Shown piece after piece: positions 3,137 through 17,607 of a DNA stretch of 19,038 nucleotides. A model generated the notes under the pieces. It saw nothing but the letters and a program-made list of their open reading frames with translations. It was not told the DNA's origin and did no database searches. The stretch covers positions 1 through 19,038 of the forward strand of contig JACRKZ010000088.1 of assembly GCA_016235455.1 (NCBI GenBank), read 5' to 3'. The stretch comes from Armatimonadota bacterium (GTDB lineage Bacteria > Armatimonadota > UBA10988). The number at the start of each line of letters is the position of its first letter. The stretch's first letter is position 1. The translations under genes and the position numbers were made by a program.

Positions 3137-5089
3137 TCACCAGATGTACTCGCCCGCCAGTTCGCGCTTGTCGTGGTCGGAGAGCACATGGAACACGCGC
3201 AGCTTCTTCAGCGTGACCGGCGACAGCCCTCCCAGCGGCAGGTAGCAGATCTGCCGCCCGAGCCGGCCGGCCCAGGTCTGGAAGTGCGAGCGCGGCGGTT
3301 TGGCGGCCACATAGACGACATGTTTGTCGAGGCTGTAGTCCAGCGCCGCCATCAGCAGCACCTCGGGCTTGGTCAGGCCGCCGCGGTAGTCGGGGTCCTC
3401 CCACACGTCCATCATGCGGCCCGGCGGATAGCTCATCGCAAAGCCGCCGTACTCGCAGCGCGCGATGCCGGGTCCGACGATCTGGCGGCCGGGATCGGTG
3501 GCGTAGAACGCCATGTCCGATTCCTGGTCGTGCTCGCCCAGCCAGGTCATGCGCCAGGGGTAGCGCTCGTCGTGGTCCTCGTCGAAGATGACCACCACCC
3601 CACCCACCTCGCCGCGGATGCGCCGCAGCTCCTTGACGTACAGCGTCTTCTCGAACCAGTTGCGCACCGTCTCGCGCACGTCGATGCCATCGAGCGTGGA
3701 GGTGGTGAACTTCTCCACGCGCGCATCGTCCTCGGCCAACTGGTGCTTGGCGCGCCGGTGCAGGTGGCGACCGAACTCCTCGATGGCCACGTCCTCGGGC
3801 GGGTAGCTGCAGATGCCCCAGCCGTCGGCGAACTCACGCCGCCACTCGCCCGCGCGCTTCTCGGACCGGCGCTCGCGCTTGGACACCGCGTGCAGGCGCA
3901 TCTTGCGCCGCTGCACCCGCGGCCGTAGCGCGAAGCGCCGGCTGCCCAGCCACATCTCGTCAGGCGTCATCTCCACCGTGGGCAGCACTGACCATTCCTG
4001 TTGCCACGGCCACCAGCTGCCCAGGTCCCACACCTCGTGGGCCAGGTTGTCGTCGGCCACGCCACGCGCGCCGACGATGAGCTGGTAGAGGTCGGGCAGC
4101 AGCGCGCCCTCGAGCAGCGCATAGTTGCGGACGAACTGCAGCCAGGTGCGCACGTAGCTCAGCCCCAGATGCTCGCCGGTCTGCACCTCATAGGCCTCGC
4201 GCGCGGCCTGCACCAGGCCCAGCAGCAGTCGCTGGCGGTCCAGCGGCTGGTCCACCTCGCCCGCGGCGCTGGCCAGGTTGACCTGCACCCGAGCCCGCCG
4301 GTCGGCCTGCTGACGCGTCGTCTCCAAGCCGCTGGAGACCAGTGTCAGTCCCGAGGCGTGGCGCGTGGTGATGACCTTAGGCGTGGGCAGCGGCTCGGGC
4401 ACGGCCAGGCGGCGGCGTTCGTAGATTGCGCTGACGAACGGCGTCACGCCCATCACCGAGCGCGCGCTGTCGGGGTGCAGGTTGAACACGTTGACCTGCT
4501 GCCGGCTGATGCGCTGCATCTGCTGTGCCTGCGGCTCATCGAGCGCGGCCAGGATGCCGGGGGTGTGCGCCATGCCGCAGACCACGAGGACGCTGTCATG
4601 CTCCGCGGCCAGCGTCTGCGCGTGCCAGGCCAGGTTGGCCTCGCGGCGGATGTCGTCACTGGTGCGCGCGGGGATCGGGTCGGCCGCGCGCCAGGCCGCG
4701 TAGTAGGGCGCGATGCCGAGCCGCGCCACGGCGTAGGCATCGGGGAACGCCTCCTCATACAGCGGGAACTCGTCCACGTCGACATCGCCGAAAACCACCG
4801 GGATGTCTTGCTCCAAGCCCGAGCGCACGGCCTCGATGAAGGCATCGCACGGCTCGACGGGCAGGTAGACGGGCAGACCCAGCTCGCTGAGGTAGACAAT
4901 CACCGACAGCTCGGGCAGCCGCCGCACGGCCAGGCGCACTTGCGGCTCCAGCGTGGGCGGCAGCTCCACCACCACGGCGCCCGGCCGTAGTTGGCGCAGC
5001 GCGAGGCGCGCGGCGTCAGCGAACTCCATCTGGTAGTGGAGCACGGGCAGAATGGTGATGTTGCCGTGCCGGGGCAGGTTGTCGAGCAT
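3137..5089 (-). CDS. Conserved hypothetical protein, N-terminal TraB/GumN/DUF5682-like (EreA/ChaN-type) domain plus uncharacterised C-terminal domain
   Basis: 650-aa ORF that reads as a real globular protein. Motifs LPVLH...VVVELP and RREANLA...VLVVCGMAH resemble the H/E...R-E...GxxH pattern of TraB/TIKI-like folds (inference). Good upstream promoter. Confidence 0.7.
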   Translation of the reverse strand: MLDNLPRHGNITILPVLHYQMEFADAARLALRQLRPGAVVVELPPTLEPQVRLAVRRLPELSVIVYLSELGLPVYLPVEPCDAFIEAVRSGLEQDIPVVFGDVDVDEFPLYEEAFPDAYAVARLGIAPYYAAWRAADPIPARTSDDIRREANLAWHAQTLAAEHDSVLVVCGMAHTPGILAALDEPQAQQMQRISRQQVNVFNLHPDSARSVMGVTPFVSAIYERRRLAVPEPLPTPKVITTRHASGLTLVSSGLETTRQQADRRARVQVNLASAAGEVDQPLDRQRLLLGLVQAAREAYEVQTGEHLGLSYVRTWLQFVRNYALLEGALLPDLYQLIVGARGVADDNLAHEVWDLGSWWPWQQEWSVLPTVEMTPDEMWLGSRRFALRPRVQRRKMRLHAVSKRERRSEKRAGEWRREFADGWGICSYPPEDVAIEEFGRHLHRRAKHQLAEDDARVEKFTTSTLDGIDVRETVRNWFEKTLYVKELRRIRGEVGGVVVIFDEDHDERYPWRMTWLGEHDQESDMAFYATDPGRQIVGPGIARCEYGGFAMSYPPGRMMDVWEDPDYRGGLTKPEVLLMAALDYSLDKHVVYVAAKPPRSHFQTWAGRLGRQICYLPLGGLSPVTLKKLRVFHVLSDHDKRELAGEYIW

Positions 5090-7366: not shown

Positions 7367-7407
7367 GAGCCGTTGGCCTGCTCGGCTACTCCGAAGGCCA
7401 GCGGCTC
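7367..7407. terminator. Strong hairpin between convergent genes (possible terminator)
   Basis: GAGCCGTTGGCCT (7367-7379) pairs with AGGCCAGCGGCTC (7395-7407), with inner TCGG/CCGA stem. It overlaps the stop codon at 7406-7408; U-tract is weak. Confidence 0.45.
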
Positions 7408-9493
7408 ATCCATTTGGGGTCTGGCGCCGCCAGACCGACAGTCTCCGTTCGCCACCCGCGGTGAGGGTCACGGGCAAGCCGTCCACCAGTTCGCTCCCGG
7501 TCCTTGTCCCACCCGAGCCGTCCCACCAGTCGAGTTGATAGCGCGCGTCGCGCTGGGCGGTGAACCACTCGGGGAACTGGTTGATGCGCGGGTAGTCGAC
7601 GGGCAGGTGCAGGTTCTCGCTGTGGCGCGGCCGGTCGAACAGCAGCCGGCCCGACCACGGCGCATCGGCGCTCAGGCTGACCCGCAGCGTGTCGCCGTCG
7701 AGCACCGCGCCGACGCGCACATCGTCCCGCCAGGGCTCAAGGTGCAGCCCCTGGGTGCGCCACAGCGTGACCATGATAGTGGTGCGCGCGAAGTTGCCGT
7801 CGCCATGCCAGCGCTCAATGGTGCCGTCGGGCTGCTGCGCGTTCCACATCTCGCGCGTCTGGTGGTCGAGGTAGGCCGGCACGTTGGGCAGTCGCTCGCG
7901 GTTGTAGAGGTTGAGCGCGCCCTCGACGCTATCGGCGATGCCATCCTGTGACGTGTCGGCCCACGGCCGGCCGTGGTACCTGGGGCCCAAGTTGCTTAGC
8001 ACATGCCGCACCGCCGCGCGGTACTCGGGCACCCCGTCGACCAGGCCCGCGGTGAGCAGCCCGTCGTAGTTGTATCCCCAGGTGTCGCACAGGCTGGCGG
8101 CGTGGGTGCCCGCGCGCGGGTCGATGCTGGTCCACAGCAGACCGTCGGGGTTGCGACCAACCGCCAACATGCACCGGTAGAGCTCGTGCAGCGGCGCGCG
8201 CCACTGCTCGCGCTTGGCTGGCCGGGCATAGGCACAGGCCAGATACAGTTCCGACAGCCCGTTGATCACCTCGCAGTCGTGGTCGGCGAATCGCAACTGC
8301 GCCAGATCGCGGCTGGGATGGTGATCACCCAGCAGGTAGTAGTCGCCCAGCCGGATGCCCCAATCCAGGAACTTGCCCTGCCCGGTGAACCAGTAGAGAC
8401 GGGCGCAGGACTGCATCAGGTCGCCGTTGACCTCGAGGGTCTGGGTGGGGATGGTGCCAAAGCGCGTGGCCACGGCCGCGTTCTTCCAGATGTCCTCAAC
8501 CAACTCGACCATGCGGTCCGACCACGGGCTGGGCCCGAGCCATTCGGTCAGCGGGATGAGCCCGTCCTTCACGTACTCGGCATTGTCGAAGACCATGCGC
8601 TCGGGATCGGGCTGGGGATACCAGAACGATTGCGTCGAGAAGCGCCACTGGTCGCCCAGCCGGTCCAGCCGGCGCGTGAGCGCGCGCTCCGTGGCCAGGA
8701 TGGCGCGCATCCGCCCATCGAGCAGCGCGCGGTCGGTCAGCGCGCAGGTGAGCACCATGAACGGGTAGTTGTCCGCGGCGGAGTCGCGCCCGTTCCACAG
8801 ATCGCGGCTGTCGCCCAGGTTGCGCGGGATGAGCCCGCTGACCGGGTCGGCCTGCGCCAGCCAGCCATCGACGTACCGACGGCAACGGTACAGCCCTTCG
8901 CTGGCCAGGCGACTGTGGCGCTCGGCGGCGCGGAAGGCCGATTCGGCGCCGCCGGGCTGGCCCTCGGGGTAGACCGGCACGCGGTCCCATCGCGGCCGCA
9001 TGGCAGGGAAGGCGTCGGGCCGCGGCGGCACGACTGCCGCGGCGGTGGTCACCGACGCCAGATGGCGCGGCGCGGCGAGGTCGCCGTCGGCGCTGCTGTC
9101 GCTGAGGAAGCGCACTTCGGCGATGAAGGCTGGCTTGCCCTCGGTCGGCGCGGACAAGGTGCAGAGCAGCGGGGCGGTCGTGGGGCCGATGGGCATGATG
9201 ACCCATTCGTAACCATCGTAGCCGCCGTGGCGTACGACCTGCTGGTCCCGGCCGATGGCCAGCCGCGCGGCGCGGTCATCCTGCTTGGCGCCCCACAACA
9301 GCGCGACCGCGACGATGCGCTCGGGCGCGTCGCAGTGCACCTGCAGCGTCACCTCGCCCAGCCACCAGTAGTTGCGCTCGGCGTAGACCTGTGCCGACTG
9401 CTGACAGCGGACCCAGGCCGTCGCGCTGCCGACACCGGGCAGGGCGGCACCGATCGTGGACGTGACGAGCAGCAGCAGGCACCAGCGTGGCAT
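7406..9493 (-). CDS. Secreted hypothetical protein, probable (alpha/alpha)6 six-hairpin glycosidase-like domain with N-terminal beta-rich module
   Basis: Signal peptide MPRWCLLLLVTSTIGA; helical aromatic/acidic core (WNGRDSAADNYPFMVLT, EYVKDGL, EVNGD, DHDCE, DTWGYNY, DGIADSVEG, WHGDGNFART); C-terminal beta segment. Fold assignment is inference. Confidence 0.65.
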   Translation of the reverse strand: MPRWCLLLLVTSTIGAALPGVGSATAWVRCQQSAQVYAERNYWWLGEVTLQVHCDAPERIVAVALLWGAKQDDRAARLAIGRDQQVVRHGGYDGYEWVIMPIGPTTAPLLCTLSAPTEGKPAFIAEVRFLSDSSADGDLAAPRHLASVTTAAAVVPPRPDAFPAMRPRWDRVPVYPEGQPGGAESAFRAAERHSRLASEGLYRCRRYVDGWLAQADPVSGLIPRNLGDSRDLWNGRDSAADNYPFMVLTCALTDRALLDGRMRAILATERALTRRLDRLGDQWRFSTQSFWYPQPDPERMVFDNAEYVKDGLIPLTEWLGPSPWSDRMVELVEDIWKNAAVATRFGTIPTQTLEVNGDLMQSCARLYWFTGQGKFLDWGIRLGDYYLLGDHHPSRDLAQLRFADHDCEVINGLSELYLACAYARPAKREQWRAPLHELYRCMLAVGRNPDGLLWTSIDPRAGTHAASLCDTWGYNYDGLLTAGLVDGVPEYRAAVRHVLSNLGPRYHGRPWADTSQDGIADSVEGALNLYNRERLPNVPAYLDHQTREMWNAQQPDGTIERWHGDGNFARTTIMVTLWRTQGLHLEPWRDDVRVGAVLDGDTLRVSLSADAPWSGRLLFDRPRHSENLHLPVDYPRINQFPEWFTAQRDARYQLDWWDGSGGTRTGSELVDGLPVTLTAGGERRLSVWRRQTPNG

Positions 9494-10662: not shown

Positions 10663-11814
10663 ATGCGACGATTAGCGTTTCTGGCCGTTCTGGTCGCTTC
10701 GATGGCCGTGGCCGCCGAGGATCAGGCCTTCTTCGCCATTGAGGCCGAGACTTCGAGCACCAAGATGCTCGGCATGCCCGAGATCAAGTTGCCGCCCGGG
10801 TTCCAGCTGCCCGCCGGCATGCAGATGCCGCCCGGCGTCATGGCCATGATGAGTGGTGCGCCGACGCGCAAGCTCAACATCCGGCTGTGGTCGCCGAGCA
10901 TCGCGCCGGCCGGCGCCACCGCCTCGGTCGTGCCACCGCCCGGGCTCAAGCAGGGCGACCGCCTCAACCTGGAGCTGTACCGGCCCCGGCCCGAGCAGAC
11001 CGGCCCCGAAACGCCCGGAGTCCCCGCCGCAGGCACGCCCGGCCAGATGCCCGACATGACCATCAAGCTGTACTGGGGCTCGTCCAAGACGGTCAAGCCC
11101 GGTCAGCCCAAAGTCATCAAGATCGGCGACCTGACACCCGACCAGCGCGCCCAGGCGGCCGCGGCCCAGCGCCGCTCCGGCGCTGGTGGCGACTACTTCT
11201 ACAAGCCGGGCTGGACCACCGCCTACTGGCCGACCAAGGATCAGGCGGGCGCCATCGACCCGGCCGCCGCGCTGCCGGGCAGCTTCGCGCTGAGCAGCAG
11301 CTACACCGGCAACGTCACGCTGCCGGTGCCCGACGACGTCAACTTCCTCGACCCCTTCGACCTGACCAGCCCCAAGCTCAGCGCCAAGCCCGACCTGACC
11401 AAGTTCCTCGACTTCCAGTGGAAGCCCATCCCCAGTCTGCTGGGGGCGAACGCCATGATGATGGGCTTCGAGGGCAAGAACACGATGATCATCTGGTCGT
11501 CGTCGGAGGTGGAGGACTACCCCCACATGGGTGGCTACCTGCAAATGGCCGAGGTGCGCCAGATGGTCGCCGACCGCAAGTTCATGGGGCCTGACCAGAC
11601 GCAGGTCTACGTACCCGAGGGCATCTTCGCCAAGGCCACCATGCCGATGCTGATGATGAACGGCTGGGGCAAGGGCACGGCCATCGACGCCGCGCAGCCG
11701 CTGCCGCGCCTGCAGACCAAGGTCAGCCTGATGCTCACCATGGGCATGCCCGGCGGCCGCGGCATGCCCGCCATGCCGCCTGGCGCCGACGGTGGCGATG
11801 GTGGCGACAACTAG
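10663..11814 (+). CDS. Secreted Met/Pro/Gly-rich hypothetical protein
   Basis: Signal peptide MRRLAFLAVLVASMAVA; strong GC3 codon bias; SD present; beta-rich core (IKLYWGSS, FQWKPIP, IIWSSSE, VPEGIF). Confidence 0.8.
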   Translation: MRRLAFLAVLVASMAVAAEDQAFFAIEAETSSTKMLGMPEIKLPPGFQLPAGMQMPPGVMAMMSGAPTRKLNIRLWSPSIAPAGATASVVPPPGLKQGDRLNLELYRPRPEQTGPETPGVPAAGTPGQMPDMTIKLYWGSSKTVKPGQPKVIKIGDLTPDQRAQAAAAQRRSGAGGDYFYKPGWTTAYWPTKDQAGAIDPAAALPGSFALSSSYTGNVTLPVPDDVNFLDPFDLTSPKLSAKPDLTKFLDFQWKPIPSLLGANAMMMGFEGKNTMIIWSSSEVEDYPHMGGYLQMAEVRQMVADRKFMGPDQTQVYVPEGIFAKATMPMLMMNGWGKGTAIDAAQPLPRLQTKVSLMLTMGMPGGRGMPAMPPGADGGDGGDN

Positions 11815-11817
11815 ATA

Positions 11818-11841
11818 GCCGCGCCTGCCCGGCAGGCTGGC
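11818..11841. terminator. Small GC hairpin between convergent genes
   Basis: GCCTGC-ccg-GCAGGC (11823-11837) with outer GCC/GGC; no U-tract. Confidence 0.3.
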
Positions 11842-11850
11842 ACCGTTCGT

Positions 11851-12843
11851 TCACTCGCGACCCCGCGGACCATCATCGGCCGCGGGGTCGCTGTCGGTTG
11901 GGCTGAGGCCGCGCCGCGGCTCGGGCAGCTCCGCGGTGTACTGGCTCAAGGCGCGGTCGTCGACTTTGGCCTGGGCCTGCGTGCTGGCCAGGGCGGCGGG
12001 ATCGAGTTCGGCTAAGGCCCAAGCGGCGCAGCGGCGCGCGGCGGGCGAGGTCGAGTGACGCATCAGTTCCACCAGGGGTCGCACCGCCGGCCGACCCACC
12101 TGGACCAGCAGTGCTACGGCGCGCCCGGCGCGGGCATTGTCGCGGCTGTCGAGCTCGGCGATGAGCGCGGGCACCATGGCCGCGCGCGTCGGCTCGGGCG
12201 TCTCCTCGCGCAGCCAGTCGATGCTCTGCTCGCGATTGGCCAGCAGGTAGCCAACTGCCTCGGCCGCCTGGGCGCCATCGCCCCAGTGCAGGTAGGCGCG
12301 CACCGCCCATTCACGCACGAGGCGCGGCTCCTCGCGGCTGGACCACAGGCGGTAGAGCAACTCGCGGTCGTCGGCGCCCATGTCGGGCTCCAGCAAGTGC
12401 AGCCCGGCCAGCTTGCCATGCTGGCGCTGCTCGGAGAAGGCGCGGTAGCCCACGCCGCGCGGCTGCGGCGCAGCCAGCATGGCGCGCAGCGCCGGATAGG
12501 CCGGAGCTCCACAGCGCCGTATCACCTGCTGCGCGAGGCACAGGATATCGTCGCGCGCGGCCTCGTCGAGGAAGCTGCCGCCGCGCGTGGGCGCGGGCCA
12601 CAGCGCGGCGCACAGGTACCGCGGCGTGTCCTGATGCCCCAACTGCCGCCGGCCCTCGGGCCGCGAGGTCAGCCGAAACAGCACCTGCATGGCCCGCTGC
12701 CGGCCGCCCGTGGTAGGCAGTGTCGCCGCTGCCTGGGCCAGGCGCGCCACGCGCTCGGGCGTCGCCGTGAGCAGGGCAGCCGTCCACGTCAGCACCCAGC
12801 GGCCGGTGCAGAGACGGTCCCAGAGCTGCTCGGGGTCGGGCAT
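11851..12843 (-). CDS. HEAT-like repeat protein, array paralogue P1 (last in transcription order)
   Basis: MPDPEQLWDRLCTGRW...ATPERVARL; HGKLAGL; EPRLVR; AAMVPALIAEL...VGRPAVRPLVELM...RRCAAWALAEL; tail RALS-x10-RGLS. Start ATG 12843 chosen by alignment to the paralogues. Confidence 0.8.
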   Translation of the reverse strand: MPDPEQLWDRLCTGRWVLTWTAALLTATPERVARLAQAAATLPTTGGRQRAMQVLFRLTSRPEGRRQLGHQDTPRYLCAALWPAPTRGGSFLDEAARDDILCLAQQVIRRCGAPAYPALRAMLAAPQPRGVGYRAFSEQRQHGKLAGLHLLEPDMGADDRELLYRLWSSREEPRLVREWAVRAYLHWGDGAQAAEAVGYLLANREQSIDWLREETPEPTRAAMVPALIAELDSRDNARAGRAVALLVQVGRPAVRPLVELMRHSTSPAARRCAAWALAELDPAALASTQAQAKVDDRALSQYTAELPEPRRGLSPTDSDPAADDGPRGRE

Positions 12844-12855
12844 GGTCGGCACTCG

Positions 12856-13833
12856 TCAGGGGTCGTTCGCCGTCGGGGCACTGGGTTCCTCGCTGGGGCT
12901 CAGACCGCGGGTCGGGTCCGTGCTGGGCGGCGCGGCCGGGCTCAGCGCGCGGCCGTCGGTGCGGCGCTCGGCACGCGCCGCGCGGAGCGCGTCTCGGTCG
13001 AGCCGCGCCAGCACCTCCTGGGCCACCTGTCGGACCGCGTGATCATCGCCGCTCCGCACCGCGTCGGCGAGCGACTCGACCGCCAGGTCGCCCAACGCGG
13101 CCAGCAGGACCAGAGCGCGGTGGCGGGTGGTGTGGTCCGCCGCGCGCAAGCCCTCGGCCAGCGGTGGCACCATGGCCTGACGTGCTTCAGCCGGCGCCTC
13201 ACCCAACGGCCACATGGGGCGTGGCAACGGCGCGCGCAGCAGCGCCTCAGCCACGGCGGCCGCATGCTCCGCGGCGGTCAGCGCCAGGAGTGGCCGGATG
13301 GCCGCGAACCGGACCTCGTGGGGCTCGTGGGGGTCGACGGCGACGGCCAGCAGCATGGCGCCGTCGTTTGGCGACAGGTGGGGCGCCAGCAGTTCCAAGG
13401 CGGCCAGCTTGCCCCCGGCGCTGGCCCAGCCTTCGAGCGCCACCACGGGCAGAGGCGGCCCGGACACCACCTCGCGCAGCAGGCGCAGGTGCCGGTCTCC
13501 CGCGTTCGCGAGCAGCAGCATGGCCGTCTGGGCCACGGCCGCCGAGACATCGTTGCCGATCAACTCGGCCATCGCCGTGTAGTCAAAGCAGGGCGCCGTC
13601 GCCCCGATGAGCACCCGCAGCGTCGGGTCATCCAGGTCACCGGCCGCGCCGGTCAGCCAGCGCAGCCCGAGGGCGATCCTCAGCCGCCGGCGCACGCCGC
13701 CAGGCTCGAGCATGGCGCGCACCAGCCGGGCCATGCGCTGTGGATCGGCGGTCCGTTGCAGCGTCGCCCGCCGCCACGGCCAGAGGTAGCCGCCGGCGCA
13801 AACGTGGTCCCACAGCCGGTCGGCATCGGCCAT
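12856..13833 (-). CDS. HEAT-like repeat protein, array paralogue P2
   Basis: Likely start ATG 13833 (SD GAGGAG; TGATG overlap with the P3 stop): MADADRLWDHVCAGGYLWPW; GPP...GGKLAALELL; EPHEVR; tail RALS-x10-RGLS. Confidence 0.8.
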   Translation of the reverse strand: MADADRLWDHVCAGGYLWPWRRATLQRTADPQRMARLVRAMLEPGGVRRRLRIALGLRWLTGAAGDLDDPTLRVLIGATAPCFDYTAMAELIGNDVSAAVAQTAMLLLANAGDRHLRLLREVVSGPPLPVVALEGWASAGGKLAALELLAPHLSPNDGAMLLAVAVDPHEPHEVRFAAIRPLLALTAAEHAAAVAEALLRAPLPRPMWPLGEAPAEARQAMVPPLAEGLRAADHTTRHRALVLLAALGDLAVESLADAVRSGDDHAVRQVAQEVLARLDRDALRAARAERRTDGRALSPAAPPSTDPTRGLSPSEEPSAPTANDP

Positions 13834-14741
13834 CACAACTCCTCGCTGGGGCTCAAGCCGCGAGTCGGGTCCGCGGTCGGGGCCTCGGCCGGACTCAGCG
13901 CGCGGTCCAGCGCGTCCACCAACTCCGCCACCTGCGCGTAGTCGACCGGCGAAATGCGGCGCAGCGCCTGCCCGGCGCGCCGGCGCACGCTGCGCGGCGC
14001 GGAGCCGCGCATCACCTCGACCAACGCCGGCACGGCCACCAGGCCCAGGCGAGAGAGCACGTCCGCCGCGGCCGCCGACACGCCGGGCACCAGGCCGCAC
14101 AGCGCCGCGATCAGCGCCGGCACCATGGCCGCCCGCACCTCTGTCCGCAGCAGATGGCCGGGCGCCTCAAGGAGTTTGGACCCATAGGTGACCATGGCCC
14201 GCGCCACGTCAGGCGCATGGCCCACGCCGTCCAGCCACAGCAGACGCTCGCCGATGGCATCGCGCACGCGGTCGGGCTCGCGGCCGTCGTCCAGCAGGCG
14301 CAGGAGCAGCGGGGCGTCAGCCGGGCCGAGTTGGTCGCGTAGCACATTGAGGGCGGTCAGCTTGGCCCCGAGGAACCGCGGTGGGCCGCTCGTCGGCGAC
14401 TCGACGACCAACTGCGCTGGTCCCACCAACACCTGGTACAGCAGGTCGCAGCAGGCCGGTGCGGCGCGCGTCACCAACTGGTCGGCCGCGGCGCAGACGC
14501 TGGTAACATGCCATAGGTCTACGCTCGACCACGACGAAGCCGTCGACCAGTTCGGCCGCAACGCCTGCACCAACGACTCCAGCACCTCCGGCGAGGTCAG
14601 CCAGGGCGCTTCCTCCTCGGCCCGCGCCAGGTCAAGCAGCACGCGCGCCGCTCTGACTCGTTCGCCGAAAGACGGGCTCGCGGCCATGGCGTGTGCGAGG
14701 CTCGCAGCCCGCGATCTGCCATCCTGCCGTTGCTCGCTCAT
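13833..14741 (-). CDS. HEAT-like repeat protein, array paralogue P3 (lacks the N-terminal Trp motif)
   Basis: GAKLTALNVL; EPDRVR; AAMVPALIAAL...LGLVAVPALVEVM; tail RALS-x10-RGLS; purine-rich SD GGGGAAGG. Confidence 0.8.
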   Translation of the reverse strand: MSEQRQDGRSRAASLAHAMAASPSFGERVRAARVLLDLARAEEEAPWLTSPEVLESLVQALRPNWSTASSWSSVDLWHVTSVCAAADQLVTRAAPACCDLLYQVLVGPAQLVVESPTSGPPRFLGAKLTALNVLRDQLGPADAPLLLRLLDDGREPDRVRDAIGERLLWLDGVGHAPDVARAMVTYGSKLLEAPGHLLRTEVRAAMVPALIAALCGLVPGVSAAAADVLSRLGLVAVPALVEVMRGSAPRSVRRRAGQALRRISPVDYAQVAELVDALDRALSPAEAPTADPTRGLSPSEEL

Positions 14742-14756
14742 GCCTTCCCCTGCTGT

Positions 14757-15812
14757 TCAGCCGCCAGGTTCCCCGCCGTCCGGGCGGCTCAGCCCGCGCC
14801 GCGCATCGGCCTCGCCCGGCGCGGCGGGGCTCAGCGAGCGGCCGTCGGCCTCACGCAAGGTCCGCGCCGTGTGCAGAGCGTCGAAGTCGATCTCGCGCAG
14901 CGTCGCCTCAGCCTGCTCGCGAGTCTGCCATACCGTGGCGTTGCGCACCAGCTCCGCCAGGGCTGGCACAGCCGCGCATCCGATGTCGACCAGCAACCGG
15001 TGGGCGCGGTCGCGCACCAGGAATGAGGTGCTGGCCAGCCCGGACACCAAACGGCCTGCCAGCTCGCCAGCCAGCGTCTCGTGGGCCGCCTTGAGCGGCA
15101 GGCTACGGTCGTCGACGGGCGCCTCCAGCAGCAGGGCTGCGATCTCGTCCACATGGGGCTGGCCGTTGAGCGCCAGAAGTCGGTATGCTGCATCCGCGCG
15201 CACCGACGCGGGCTGTCCCGTGTCGCGCATGAGCGCCAGCAGCACCGGCTCTGCCTCCGGCGCGTGGCGCAAGCGGTCCAGCGCCTTGGCCCGGACCGGC
15301 CAGGGCTCATCAGCCTTGCCGGCCAACGCCAGCAACAGCGCCTCGTCGGCGTCCGTCGGCGGCAACGTGTCCAATGCGAACAGCTTGGCGCCGACCATGA
15401 CGCGGCTCGCCATCACCGGAAGGCTGACCACCGCCAGCGGCGGGCCGGCCAGCAGCGCGCGCAGTTCTGGCGCCACGTCGCGCCAGCGATAGCGCAGCAG
15501 GTCCTGCGCCAGCAGGGCGGCCTTGGCGACGTACTCCATGCGCATCGCCTCGGCCGGGCCATCGAAGCGCGGCGTGAGCGCCGGCAGCAGCGCGCGGTGC
15601 ACCTCCGGGTCGTGGCTGGCCGCGGTCAGCCACAGGCCGCTCAGCAACTGCGCGGCACGCAGCCGGTACACGGGTTCGGGCAACTCGGCCGCGGCCCGGG
15701 CCAGACGGCTCAGCCGCTCGGGTGTGGCGCTGCTCTCCAGGCGCACGCGCTGCCACGGCCACAGCCACTCGCCGGCCGAGCCCCTGGCCCATAGCGCGTT
15801 GTCGTCAGCCAT
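14757..15812 (-). CDS. HEAT-like repeat protein, array paralogue P4 (one extra repeat)
   Basis: MADDNALWARGSAGEWLWPW...SATPERLSRL; GPP...GAKLFAL; two LLAL-x6-P-x2-VRA units; IGCAAVPALAELV; tail RSLS-x10-RGLS. Confidence 0.8.
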   Translation of the reverse strand: MADDNALWARGSAGEWLWPWQRVRLESSATPERLSRLARAAAELPEPVYRLRAAQLLSGLWLTAASHDPEVHRALLPALTPRFDGPAEAMRMEYVAKAALLAQDLLRYRWRDVAPELRALLAGPPLAVVSLPVMASRVMVGAKLFALDTLPPTDADEALLLALAGKADEPWPVRAKALDRLRHAPEAEPVLLALMRDTGQPASVRADAAYRLLALNGQPHVDEIAALLLEAPVDDRSLPLKAAHETLAGELAGRLVSGLASTSFLVRDRAHRLLVDIGCAAVPALAELVRNATVWQTREQAEATLREIDFDALHTARTLREADGRSLSPAAPGEADARRGLSRPDGGEPGG

Positions 15813-15854
15813 GCTGGTCACCTGCAAACACGGACATCCTGCCTAGCGACCGAC

Positions 15855-16835
15855 CTACCCGCCGCGTTCCTGCCCGTCGCTCCGGCTCAGCCCGCGTTCG
15901 GCATCGGCGCCGCCCGGCTCGGCAGGGCTTAACGATCGCCCATCCGCCTCCCGCAGGCTCAGCGCCGCGCGCAGCGCGTGGCGGTCGATGTGGCCCAAGG
16001 CTTCTTCAGCGTTCTGGCGCGCCTGCCAGGTCTCGGCCGCGCGGACCTCGGCGGCGAGTGCGTCGGTGGCGGGCTGGCCTACGGCGACCAGCAGGCCACG
16101 CGCGCGCATACGCAGTTCGGGCGTGTCGCCGTGCAGCGCGGCCACGAAGTGCGGCACCAGCGCCGCCAGCGCCGCCTCGGGCAGCGCGTCGCGCCAGCGG
16201 CGAAGCAGGTCCGACGGACGGGTCAGCAGGTACTCGGCCAGCGCCGCCGACTGGCTCGGCCCGCACAGCCGCAGCCAGCAGCGCGCCGCCTCGTCGCGCA
16301 CCTCGTCGGGCTCGTCGGGGTTGGTCACCAGCGCGCCCAGCAGCGCGTCATCGGCCACGGTCAGGCTGCCGTCGAGCAGTTCGAGCGCGGCCAGCTTGGC
16401 GCCCAGCGGGGTGTCGATACCGTTGGCCGTGACCAGCGTGAGCGGCCGAGGCGGCCCGCCGAGCAACTGGCGCAGAGCCGGCTCGGCGTGGGGGCCGAGA
16501 TCGGCGACGACCGCGCGCAGCGTGAGGAAGATGCTATAGATCCAGGTGTCCTGGTTCTGCCACCAGTCCTCGCCGATGTGCCGCACGTCGAGCGCGTCGA
16601 CCAAGGCGGTCAGCAGGGGCGGTTGGTTCAGGAGATCCGTGCAGCCAAGGCCGGCCAGCCAGCGCAGCGACCGCGCCGCGACAAAGCGGCGGTAGAGCTG
16701 AGGCAGCCCGGTGATGGCGTCGAGCAACCGAGCCAGGCGGTCGGGCGTCGCGGAGGCGAGCACGGCGCGTTTGGACCAGAACCAGACCGAACGGCCCTGG
16801 CAGAGGCGGTCCCACAGGCGGTCAACGACGTCCAT
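15855..16835 (-). CDS. HEAT-like repeat protein, array paralogue P5 (first in transcription order)
   Basis: MDVVDRLWDRLCQGRSVWFW...SATPDRLARL; GPP...GAKLAALELL; EPDEVR; VGQPATDALAAEV; tail RSLS-x10-RGLS. Confidence 0.8.
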   Translation of the reverse strand: MDVVDRLWDRLCQGRSVWFWSKRAVLASATPDRLARLLDAITGLPQLYRRFVAARSLRWLAGLGCTDLLNQPPLLTALVDALDVRHIGEDWWQNQDTWIYSIFLTLRAVVADLGPHAEPALRQLLGGPPRPLTLVTANGIDTPLGAKLAALELLDGSLTVADDALLGALVTNPDEPDEVRDEAARCWLRLCGPSQSAALAEYLLTRPSDLLRRWRDALPEAALAALVPHFVAALHGDTPELRMRARGLLVAVGQPATDALAAEVRAAETWQARQNAEEALGHIDRHALRAALSLREADGRSLSPAEPGGADAERGLSRSDGQERGG

Positions 16836-16843
16836 GATGTGCC

Positions 16844-16852
16844 ATCGTAGCA
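16844..16852 (-). promoter_or_regulatory. Extended -10 promoter TGcTACGAT, 8 nt upstream of ATG 16835 (putative promoter of the paralogue array)
   Basis: TGnTAnnnT match, no SD and no well-spaced -35; geometry consistent with a leaderless transcript. Confidence 0.5.
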
Positions 16853-16885
16853 CATCGCCTGGCTCTCAAACCGGGAGCGGACGCC

Positions 16886-17452
16886 TCAGTGGGCAGTCGC
16901 GGCGGCCGCGGACGAGCGCGACCGCCGCGACCGCGGGGGTGGCCCGCATTCCTGCTCGAAGTCGAGTACGCCGAGCCGTGGCGGTGTGTGACCGGCGCGC
17001 CTCAACAGGTCGCACATGAGTGTGCGCTGCTCCGTGCTGTGGTGCAGTACATGCGAGAGAATGGTGCGGGGCGAGGCTTCGCGCATCTCGCCTTCAGGCT
17101 CGCCAGGGTAGAGAATGGGCTGGTCCAGACGCGTGGCGAGTTTGTTGACCTGCGCGGGCCACAGATTGCCCAGCATCTCGGCCATGTCGGCGCAGTGCGC
17201 GGCTGTCCAGGCGGGGTACAGCTCCTCGGCCTCATAGCGCACGCCGCGCAGACGCTCCATCCAGATCTTCTCGACCACCAGCAGATGGCCGAGATGGCTG
17301 GCCGCTTGCGCACAACTCCCGGGCACGGCCACCGGCCGGTCGTCGCCGGACGGACACGCCTCTCGGCAGGCGCCGTCCAGCGCCTCGCAGGCGCGGCGAT
17401 TAGCCCATCGATTGTAGGCAAAGGCCCGGCAGAGCGCCGCCAGGTCCGTCAT
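16886..17452 (-). CDS. DinB family protein (DinB/YfiT-like four-helix bundle)
   Basis: AYNRWANRR, LGHLLVVEKIWMERL, ILSHVLHHSTEQR..LRRAGHTPP. ATG 17452 follows SD AAGGGAG. Confidence 0.85.
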   Translation of the reverse strand: MTDLAALCRAFAYNRWANRRACEALDGACREACPSGDDRPVAVPGSCAQAASHLGHLLVVEKIWMERLRGVRYEAEELYPAWTAAHCADMAEMLGNLWPAQVNKLATRLDQPILYPGEPEGEMREASPRTILSHVLHHSTEQRTLMCDLLRRAGHTPPRLGVLDFEQECGPPPRSRRSRSSAAAATAH

Positions 17453-17477
17453 ACGTCGAGCTCCCTTGGTAGGGATC

Positions 17478-17483
17478 ATTGTA
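17478..17483 (-). promoter_or_regulatory. -10 element TACAAT for the DinB-family gene
   Basis: Near-consensus -10 upstream of the SD; TTGAAC lies only 15 nt upstream, which is suboptimal spacing. Confidence 0.45.
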
Positions 17484-17550
17484 GCCAAAACCGCGATGGT
17501 TCAATGCCCGCCGTGTGACACCAAGGCAACACCGACCTGAACTGAGCAGG

Positions 17551-17575
17551 CTAATCCGCCTACAGAGCGGATTGG
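17551..17575. terminator. Hairpin downstream of the deaminase gene
   Basis: CTAATCCGC-ctacaga-GCGGATTGG; the short T-run lies on the + strand side, so direction is uncertain. Confidence 0.3.
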
Positions 17576-17607
17576 TCCTTTTGAAATGGCCCTTTCTGGC
17601 CACGCCG

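Follow-up and report, generated by a model that had tools for sequence, protein, structure and literature searches.

Encapsulin cargo-loading peptides, dockerins and signals of the Haft type (PEP-CTERM, LPXTG and GlyGly-CTERM) are terminal tags shared by unrelated proteins, and the recognition of such shared motifs has repeatedly led to new machinery, as with sortases, exosortases, encapsulin loading and the dockerin-cohesin pair. HEAT-like repeat proteins include the PBS/HEAT proteins (PF13646; MTH187, PDB 1te4; alphaRep) and, at a size similar to that of the proteins described here, the CpcE/CpcF lyase and deoxyhypusine hydroxylase, the latter of which needs His-Glu metal sites in its HEAT repeats. 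Here, we describe a stretch of 19,038 nucleotides (nt) of an Armatimonadota bacterium (contig JACRKZ010000088.1 of assembly GCA_016235455.1), referred to as the window, which carries an array of five genes, PA to PE, encoding diverged HEAT-like solenoid proteins that all end in a short bipartite motif with the sequence Arg-Gly-Leu-Ser (RGLS) in its second half. The same ending, called the tag below, closes proteins of unrelated fold elsewhere in the source genome (G000; 6.5 Mb in 185 contigs, 93% complete). We read the five genes as tandem paralogues from a small family of solenoids that is restricted to the clade and whose members are soluble and cytoplasmic, each with a body of ~300 residues and a disordered tail, and the tail as a portable tag read in trans, an interpretation to which we give an even chance.

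The gene limits used are the ATG starts of an earlier reading of this DNA made from the letters alone (the preliminary description):

15855-16835, minus strand: PA, paralogue 1, 326 residues, ATG start, solenoid body and disordered tagged tail
14757-15812, minus strand: PB, paralogue 2, 351 residues, ATG start
13833-14741, minus strand: PC, paralogue 3, 302 residues, ATG start
12856-13833, minus strand: PD, paralogue 4, 325 residues, its ATG overlapping the PC stop by 1 nt (TGATG)
11851-12843, minus strand: PE, paralogue 5, 330 residues, ATG start

Calculated from these coordinates, the spacing from PA to PE is 42, 15, -1 and 12 nt. The G+C content of the window is 70-75% and long spurious open reading frames (ORFs) occur in all frames; the five minus-strand frames between 11851 and 16865 were singled out by codon-position GC, with GC3 (0.87-0.89) above GC1 (0.77-0.79) and GC1 above GC2 (0.52-0.57). 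ORF coordinates and codon-position GC, therefore, bear out the five co-oriented genes of 302-351 residues, and the gaps between them, that the preliminary description had reported.

Identity of PB, PC, PD and PE to PA is 37, 32, 36 and 32%, respectively, with 37 invariant columns in the five-protein alignment, and the bodies without their last 45 residues still match one another in pairwise BLASTP at E values from 9e-6 to 6e-26, confirming the earlier view that the genes are diverged paralogues. The absence of the N-terminal LW...W.W block from PC, also noted before, is seen in the alignment. PB alone contains an insertion of 29 residues at approximately residues 152-180 (window positions 15270-15360), which resembles the next repeat, of the D-E-P-x-x-V-R type, and probably represents the duplication of an internal HEAT-type repeat. 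Among public DNA contigs, those of three runs of one study tile the array in pieces covering 11545-14852 (3308 nt), 14823-15981 and 15952 onward, and a run from a second study contains a relative that is a few percent divergent. The tally of strain variants rests on the 40 of 97 variant positions that are listed, 36 of which fall inside PA-PE (21 synonymous and 15 non-synonymous), with no indels listed across the array. Outside PD codons 318-325, the listed variants comprise 19 synonymous versus 9 non-synonymous changes; these eight PD codons, which lie after RGLS (12859-12881), hold 6 non-synonymous and 2 synonymous variants from runs of two studies. This pattern fits purifying selection on the bodies together with a free post-motif end, and the mostly synonymous changes in the bodies and the lack of listed indels agree with the earlier proposal of old duplications kept intact.

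The tag has two parts, [A/G/S]-L-S-x-[A/P]-x and [D/E]-R-G-L-S, spaced 10-13 residues apart, and after the second come another 2-25 residues that are unconstrained and mostly acidic. Its positions in the array, with the E values obtained with the tail profile, are as follows:

15867-15977, minus strand: tag of PA (DGRSLSPAE...ERGLS), E 9.3e-10, and 7.0e-9 in the six-frame ORF search
14766-14879, minus strand: tag of PB, E 8.6e-10
13839-13946, minus strand: tag of PC, E 1.8e-11
12880-12990, minus strand: tag of PD, E 2.7e-9, with the variable post-tag end at 12856-12881
11884-11988, minus strand: tag of PE, E 3.2e-9

In an alignment of 17 family members (136 pairs), mean pairwise identity is 53.4% over PA residues 297-319 compared to 28.0% over residues 1-296, and the best-conserved 23-residue window starts at PA residue 295. 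Four of the 12 invariant columns are R-G-L-S, which is present in 17/17 rows, while R300, L302, S303 and A305 are near-invariant; among the solenoid relatives fetched from outside the window, 13 of 14 contain RGLS. The DNA of the five tails varies at synonymous sites (TTA/CTG/TTG, AGC/AGT and GGG/GGC/GGT), indicating that the constraint acts on the peptide. The preliminary description had listed the tail as one conserved motif among eight, and the tail is indeed there, but it was missed that this is the most conserved element of the proteins and that it is common to unrelated families. Given these two properties, the question moves from the solenoid to the tag.

When the six-frame ORFs of G000 were scanned with a regular expression, many that the solenoid profile does not match proved to have this bipartite ending too. 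A profile built from 25 tails of G000 (A5) and searched at E<=0.01 against the six-frame ORFs of at least 60 residues matched 33 of 57,798, including 8 outside the training set; every match ends no more than 16 residues from the ORF end, and the same ORFs reversed gave 0 matches. RGLS as such occurs 153 times in coding-like ORFs (n=10,034), with 47 occurrences in the last 40 residues. Besides PA-PE, ~28 further proteins of G000 end in the tag and are of unrelated fold: when the tails were removed from 33 ORFs selected by regular expression, the bodies formed clusters of 22, 6 (the solenoids), 2, 1, 1 and 1. For carriers of the other families, Pfam gave bPH_6 above its cut-off in 2 of 10 tested, with weaker matches to YcxB and DUF6232 and none to HEAT, and nearly all non-solenoid carriers have hydrophobic segments of transmembrane (TM) grade, with two to four TM segments. 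In the AlphaFold2 model of one member of the membrane family, a unit made of a TM hairpin, a beta-sandwich and a helix, in this order, occurs twice (predicted local distance difference test score, pLDDT, 67); Foldseek returned nothing at E<=0.001 for this model, and its weak rows were PH/PTB/FERM-type chains. Most of the further carriers are taken to have such a layout, with two TM hairpins and a PH-like beta domain after each. The tag comes in two forms, P-[DE]-x-A-L-S-x-A...E-R-G-L-S and E-R-G-L-S-R-P-E...D-R-G-L-S, and the version of the solenoids is D-[GD]-R-[AS]-L-S...R-G-L-S. Tandem arrays of clade-specific membrane proteins with TM hairpins, PH-like domains and an ALS...RGLS tail are located in G000 as follows:

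C167:20351-26390 (L041): five genes
C98:1-4627 (L044): five genes
C120:3866-6706 (L043): three to four genes
C114:29838-32969 (L047): two to three genes
C135:37897-39481 (L042): two genes

In the first of these arrays, the N- and C-terminal halves of the fifth gene (C167:25352-26390) lie in two overlapping frames, which could reflect a frameshift, a pseudogene or an assembly error.

The distribution of the tag and of the bodies that carry it was compared across 40 relatives, consisting of 5 genomes of the same family and 35 genomes of 21 other families of the phylum. The tag profile gave 1-17 matches in each of the five same-family genomes and none in the other 35; the profile of the membrane-family body without its tail (A7) likewise matched 5/5 and 0/35, and solenoid matches over most of the profile were found in 5/5 and 0/35, the latter genomes giving partial repeat matches or none. 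The genomes with the tag span five genera, and the order is represented in the collection by seven species genomes, six of them with the tag. In the loci fetched from the five relatives and G000, the tag was detected at E<=0.01 on 40 of the 55 ORFs of the membrane family and on 13 of the 17 that encode solenoids. A word-indexed protein search with the tail profile, covering 8000 word-sharing candidates, gave at least 27 matches, mostly from G000, one of which (P0159) belongs to an organism named by NCBI as a Fimbriimonadaceae bacterium; with the solenoid alignment the same kind of search gave at least four. In a profile search of 1.84 billion representatives, 19 of the best 150 match along most of the solenoid profile (5 being the window's own) and the other 131 are long HEAT proteins that owe their scores to their many repeats. 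Literature searches, judged from their listings, turned up no account of HEAT repeats in Fimbriimonadaceae, of an RGLS motif or of a C-terminal sorting signal in Armatimonadetes, and searches for Fimbriimonadaceae secretion systems and for tandem bacterial PH-domain membrane proteins gave only papers judged from the listing to be unrelated.

Tandem solenoid genes are also present in the relatives, with four copies in G003:C98, three in G002:C27, three in G004:C57 and two in G005:C53. G000 itself has one further full-length copy outside the array (contig C62:10507-11433, E 8.7e-29), its other matches covering the repeat region only. This sixth paralogue (C62:10498-11514, locus L037:6499-7515) has a degenerate tail, RGLS...RGVT, that falls below the tag-profile threshold, and the gene directly downstream encodes a GNAT acetyltransferase. 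P0035 (565 residues), in which two solenoid copies are naturally fused, has the tag only at its extreme C-terminus, on the second copy.

The bodies of PA-PE are solenoids that elude family assignment over their full length. Pfam HEAT_2 (PF13646) scored 14.9, 14.9, 19.4, 18.0 and 23.3 bits for PA to PE, each below the gathering cut-off of 27.7. The AlphaFold2 model of PA, built from the five-sequence alignment, has 17 helices arranged as a solenoid and a single beta-hairpin, at residues 133-144 (mean pLDDT 89.4; predicted template modelling score, pTM, 0.82), and residues 306-326 have pLDDT <50, consistent with a disordered tail. Foldseek of this model against the PDB returned 25 chains at E<=0.001, all generic ARM/HEAT proteins with TM-scores of 0.23-0.41 and probability 1.00, among them designed armadillo proteins, alphaRep, beta-catenin, importin-alpha and PP2A-A. 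The 17-sequence family profile matched 26 sequences of the PDB at E<=0.01, almost all of them by way of the two PBS-type repeats at positions 227-283 of the profile, the best being an alphaRep chain with E 1.2e-44, a value summed over the repeats of one chain. The AlphaFold2 model, the matches to alphaRep and MTH187 and the Foldseek result thus show a stacked helix-turn-helix solenoid with repeat-level likeness to PBS-HEAT repeats; the last two repeats are canonical PBS/HEAT and the N-terminal two thirds are family-specific. In the ESM Atlas, the neighbours of the solenoids were generic HEAT clusters only.

A Kyte-Doolittle scan found borderline Ala/Leu-rich helices in PC and PD only (1.64-1.72), and since the same helices are solenoid helices in the PA model, these segments are no evidence for TM segments. 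The preliminary description was, therefore, right in treating the five proteins as soluble and TM-free, and its picture of a scaffold that is an alpha-solenoid, lacks a catalytic motif and belongs to no named family other than generic HEAT holds in Pfam, NCBIfam, PADLOC, the PDB profile search, ESM Atlas and Foldseek alike. It had also held that full-length assignment to a characterised family would overturn this picture; none was found, and only the two C-terminal PBS/HEAT-type repeats match profiles. Two such families were tried and rejected. For the phycocyanobilin lyase CpcE/F, the CpcF equivalog model gave 16.1 bits with PC, 17.8 bits with PE and no match with the other three proteins, compared to a cut-off of 220, and PDB 5n3u_B reached only E 0.0077 to the family profile. 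For deoxyhypusine hydroxylase, no His is present among the 12 invariant and 11 near-invariant columns of the 17-sequence alignment.

Reading the tail as a portable tag would make it a short linear recognition motif with two Leu-Ser half-sites, and one clade-specific trans-acting factor could handle all the tagged proteins on the cytoplasmic side of the membrane. Such a factor might be a receptor for docking, an enzyme that modifies serines or a protease. If the tag is read in trans, a docking receptor is the leading candidate at somewhat below an even chance, serine modification comes behind it as a tentative second, a degron or processing signal is a lesser possibility and any other kind of reader is unlikely. 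A docking or modification site accounts better than a free-carboxylate ligand or a loose secretion signal for the strict placement at the C-terminus, for the disorder, for the two serines that never vary and for the freedom of the residues after the motif. Diversified binding surfaces would be the contribution of the solenoid bodies, a role suggested by the fold alone, and PA-PE would be the soluble adaptors or scaffolds among the tagged proteins. Taken further, and here we are distinctly more tentative, the tail may be the address label of an undescribed clade-specific system for targeting, tethering or serine modification in an uncultured lineage filed by NCBI under Fimbriimonadaceae, acting on at least 30 proteins per genome from three or more unrelated, lineage-born and tandemly expanding families, with the solenoids as its soluble adaptor arm, the PH-like proteins as its membrane arm and a reader belonging to a new protein family. 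The motif, the two protein families that bear it and their tandem expansions coincide in one small uncultured clade and, among the genomes searched, nowhere else; through the factor reading the tag, this offers a testable handle on a lineage without characterised lineage-specific systems. For annotation, a single feature unites ~33 hypothetical proteins in each genome, and the five-gene array becomes part of a set instead of an isolated HEAT operon.

Several observations weigh against a tag read in trans by a dedicated factor. No tag-reading partner was identified in G000, where no untagged gene recurs specifically beside tagged genes within 7 kb, and no tag-specific neighbour appeared across 24 loci of the five relatives and G000. 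The neighbourhood of the array varies between genomes. In the monomer model of PA, the tail is not docked on the body (pLDDT <50), and the cytoplasmic topology proposed for the membrane carriers comes from hydropathy and a medium-confidence model. The public runs matching the array number eight, all of them DNA from two studies (groundwater and freshwater metagenomes), with no RNA runs found. Finally, the tag profile was trained on G000, so its counts in relatives may be underestimates and its absence from other families means not found in the genomes searched.

The untagged genes that do recur near tagged ones encode DUF1559 pilin-like proteins, large PD40/HZS-alpha proteins and DUF6785 proteins with an FAD oxidoreductase, present in several copies in the regions examined. 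DUF1559 pilin-like and large secreted proteins are abundant in this phylum, and these genes are taken to be neighbours by abundance. A weak lead to a partner is a gene pair encoding a 170-residue protein and a Zn-ribbon/TM protein (weak Ima1_N-like Pfam match), which follows the solenoid array in G002 (L034:9484-10833) and G003 (L033:4877-6196). In G004 (L035:7462-8478), only an ORF like that of the 170-residue protein follows the array, and in G000 the pair lies away from the solenoids (contig C37:19332-20566), beside an ORF whose translation reads as AAA ATPase-like. Known kinds of terminal signal were also considered for the tag and rejected. A sortase, exosortase or rhombosortase signal does not agree with the 2-25 mostly acidic or polar residues after RGLS, which include no hydrophobic helix or basic cluster, and no NCBIfam model matches the tail at E<=1. 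An encapsulin cargo peptide was rejected because PF04454, which did pick up the control genomes, matched nothing in the 93%-complete genome.

Among other explanations, the one that fares best, although we judge it unlikely, is an exported or translocated repertoire in which the tail is a secretion signal, as in substrates of type IV or type I systems, and the solenoids are delivered out of the cell as effectors. Bacterial effectors often contain ARM/HEAT-like repeats, and a signal that is strictly C-terminal, disordered, acidic and common to unrelated, expanding, clade-specific families is what such a repertoire would show. Most carriers, however, are polytopic membrane proteins, and neither VirB4 (type IV), TssC (type VI) nor an encapsulin gene was found in the 93%-complete genome, two results that tell against the exported effector set suggested in the preliminary description. 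Known C-terminal secretion signals are, moreover, loose and compositional where the tag is sharply bipartite, and anything between 2 and ~25 residues may separate RGLS from the C-terminus.

We put little weight on another suggestion made there, a poly-immunity or defence cassette in which the paralogues would act against polymorphic toxins or phages as immunity or sensor proteins. The array is tandem, diverged and intact, as expected for such a cassette, a deaminase-domain gene lies two genes upstream, and weak, sub-threshold matches were seen to repeat regions in HyoA and EruA, two antiphage proteins of the NACHT type. Yet the deaminase lacks a toxin architecture and is best matched by ComEB/dCMP deaminase, at 109 bits, which is under the equivalog cut-off of 219; no toxin, Rhs, CdiA or LXG-type gene is present in the window, so that the claim of a cassette is not sustained. 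PADLOC-DB 2.0 gave 0 families at E<=0.01 for 9/9 proteins (PA-PE and four other tagged proteins), neighbourhoods differ between genomes, and immunity would leave unexplained why the tag is common to membrane proteins.

Still less probable is that the tagged proteins are processed precursors, the tail being cleaved by a dedicated peptidase (for example, of the C39 type) in the manner of a double-glycine leader, with a short C-terminal peptide released or removed. The idea draws on the LS-x-x-E...G spacing, which we take to be loosely like the double-glycine leader consensus, and on the only three Peptidase_C39 paralogues of G000, which lie in tandem directly downstream of a tagged PH-like gene (C3:32406-35103, L055:10407-13104), are membrane-anchored and have Cys, His and Asp conserved. 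A double-glycine leader was rejected, as the expected position has neither Gly-Gly nor Gly-Ala, the motif being R-G-L-S, and the spacing varies from 10 to 13. A C39 peptidase as obligate partner was rejected as well, since the pattern of the subfamily does not follow the tag: it is present in two of the five tag-bearing relatives (weakly, E 4e-8 and 4e-11) and in nine tag-less genomes of seven families. The post-tag peptides are, in addition, short, variable and accumulating non-synonymous changes. The weakest alternative, generic HEAT proteins whose tail likeness is a by-product of descent or composition without separate function, takes support from the purely generic HEAT/ARM neighbours in the ESM Atlas and Foldseek and from a high GC that favours Arg, Gly, Leu, Ser and Ala codons, but is disfavoured and has very little chance of being right, given 0 matches on reversed ORFs of identical composition, matches that are all C-terminal, a tail on non-homologous bodies and a tail about twice as conserved as the body across five genera.

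The surroundings of the array in the window include two further features on its upstream side:

16836-16885, minus strand: spacer of 50 nt between the DinB-family gene and PA, with the candidate -10 string TG-n-TACGAT
16886-17488, minus strand, the same as the array: DinB-family gene, ending 50 nt upstream of the PA ATG

The extended -10 promoter proposed earlier is, thus, present as a string upstream of PA, but was not recognised as a promoter: a consensus scan of 11600-17600 for sigma-70 promoter-like and terminator-like sites gave 0 and 0. Beyond the DinB-family gene lie a gene for a ComEB-like dCMP (deoxycytidine monophosphate) deaminase and then a divergent peroxiredoxin gene; downstream of the array is a convergent gene for a signal-peptide protein with no family assigned by Pfam or NCBIfam, and a SHOCT protein is also among the neighbours. 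Three ORFs of the window, at 3137-5089 (minus strand, 650 residues), 7406-9493 (minus strand, 695 residues) and 10663-11814 (plus strand, 383 residues), are coding-like without a Pfam or NCBIfam match, the last having a signal peptide and Met/Pro/Gly-rich stretches.

Compared with described systems, the bodies of PA-PE are closest to PBS/HEAT proteins, with which they share the two C-terminal repeats, the solenoid fold and the repeat signatures E-P-x-x-V-R and A-x-x-L-x-x-x-G. They differ from these proteins in the LW..W.W block, the LL.GPP block with its beta-hairpin and the GAKL.AL motif, which match nothing, and in the tagged tail, which has no counterpart there. A likeness in architecture only links them to armadillo and importin-alpha peptide receptors, which likewise combine a solenoid, with a potential peptide groove, and a disordered terminal motif; the top Foldseek matches of PA are designed armadillo proteins bound to peptides. 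Unlike the autoinhibited armadillo/importin-alpha receptors, the PA monomer model shows no docking of the tail. The tag itself is most like encapsulin peptides, dockerins and Haft-type signals in being a short conserved C-terminal element on many unrelated proteins of one lineage, and its two half-sites are a feature of dockerins as well. It is set apart from all of these by its carriers, which would include cytoplasmic and inner-membrane proteins instead of exported ones.

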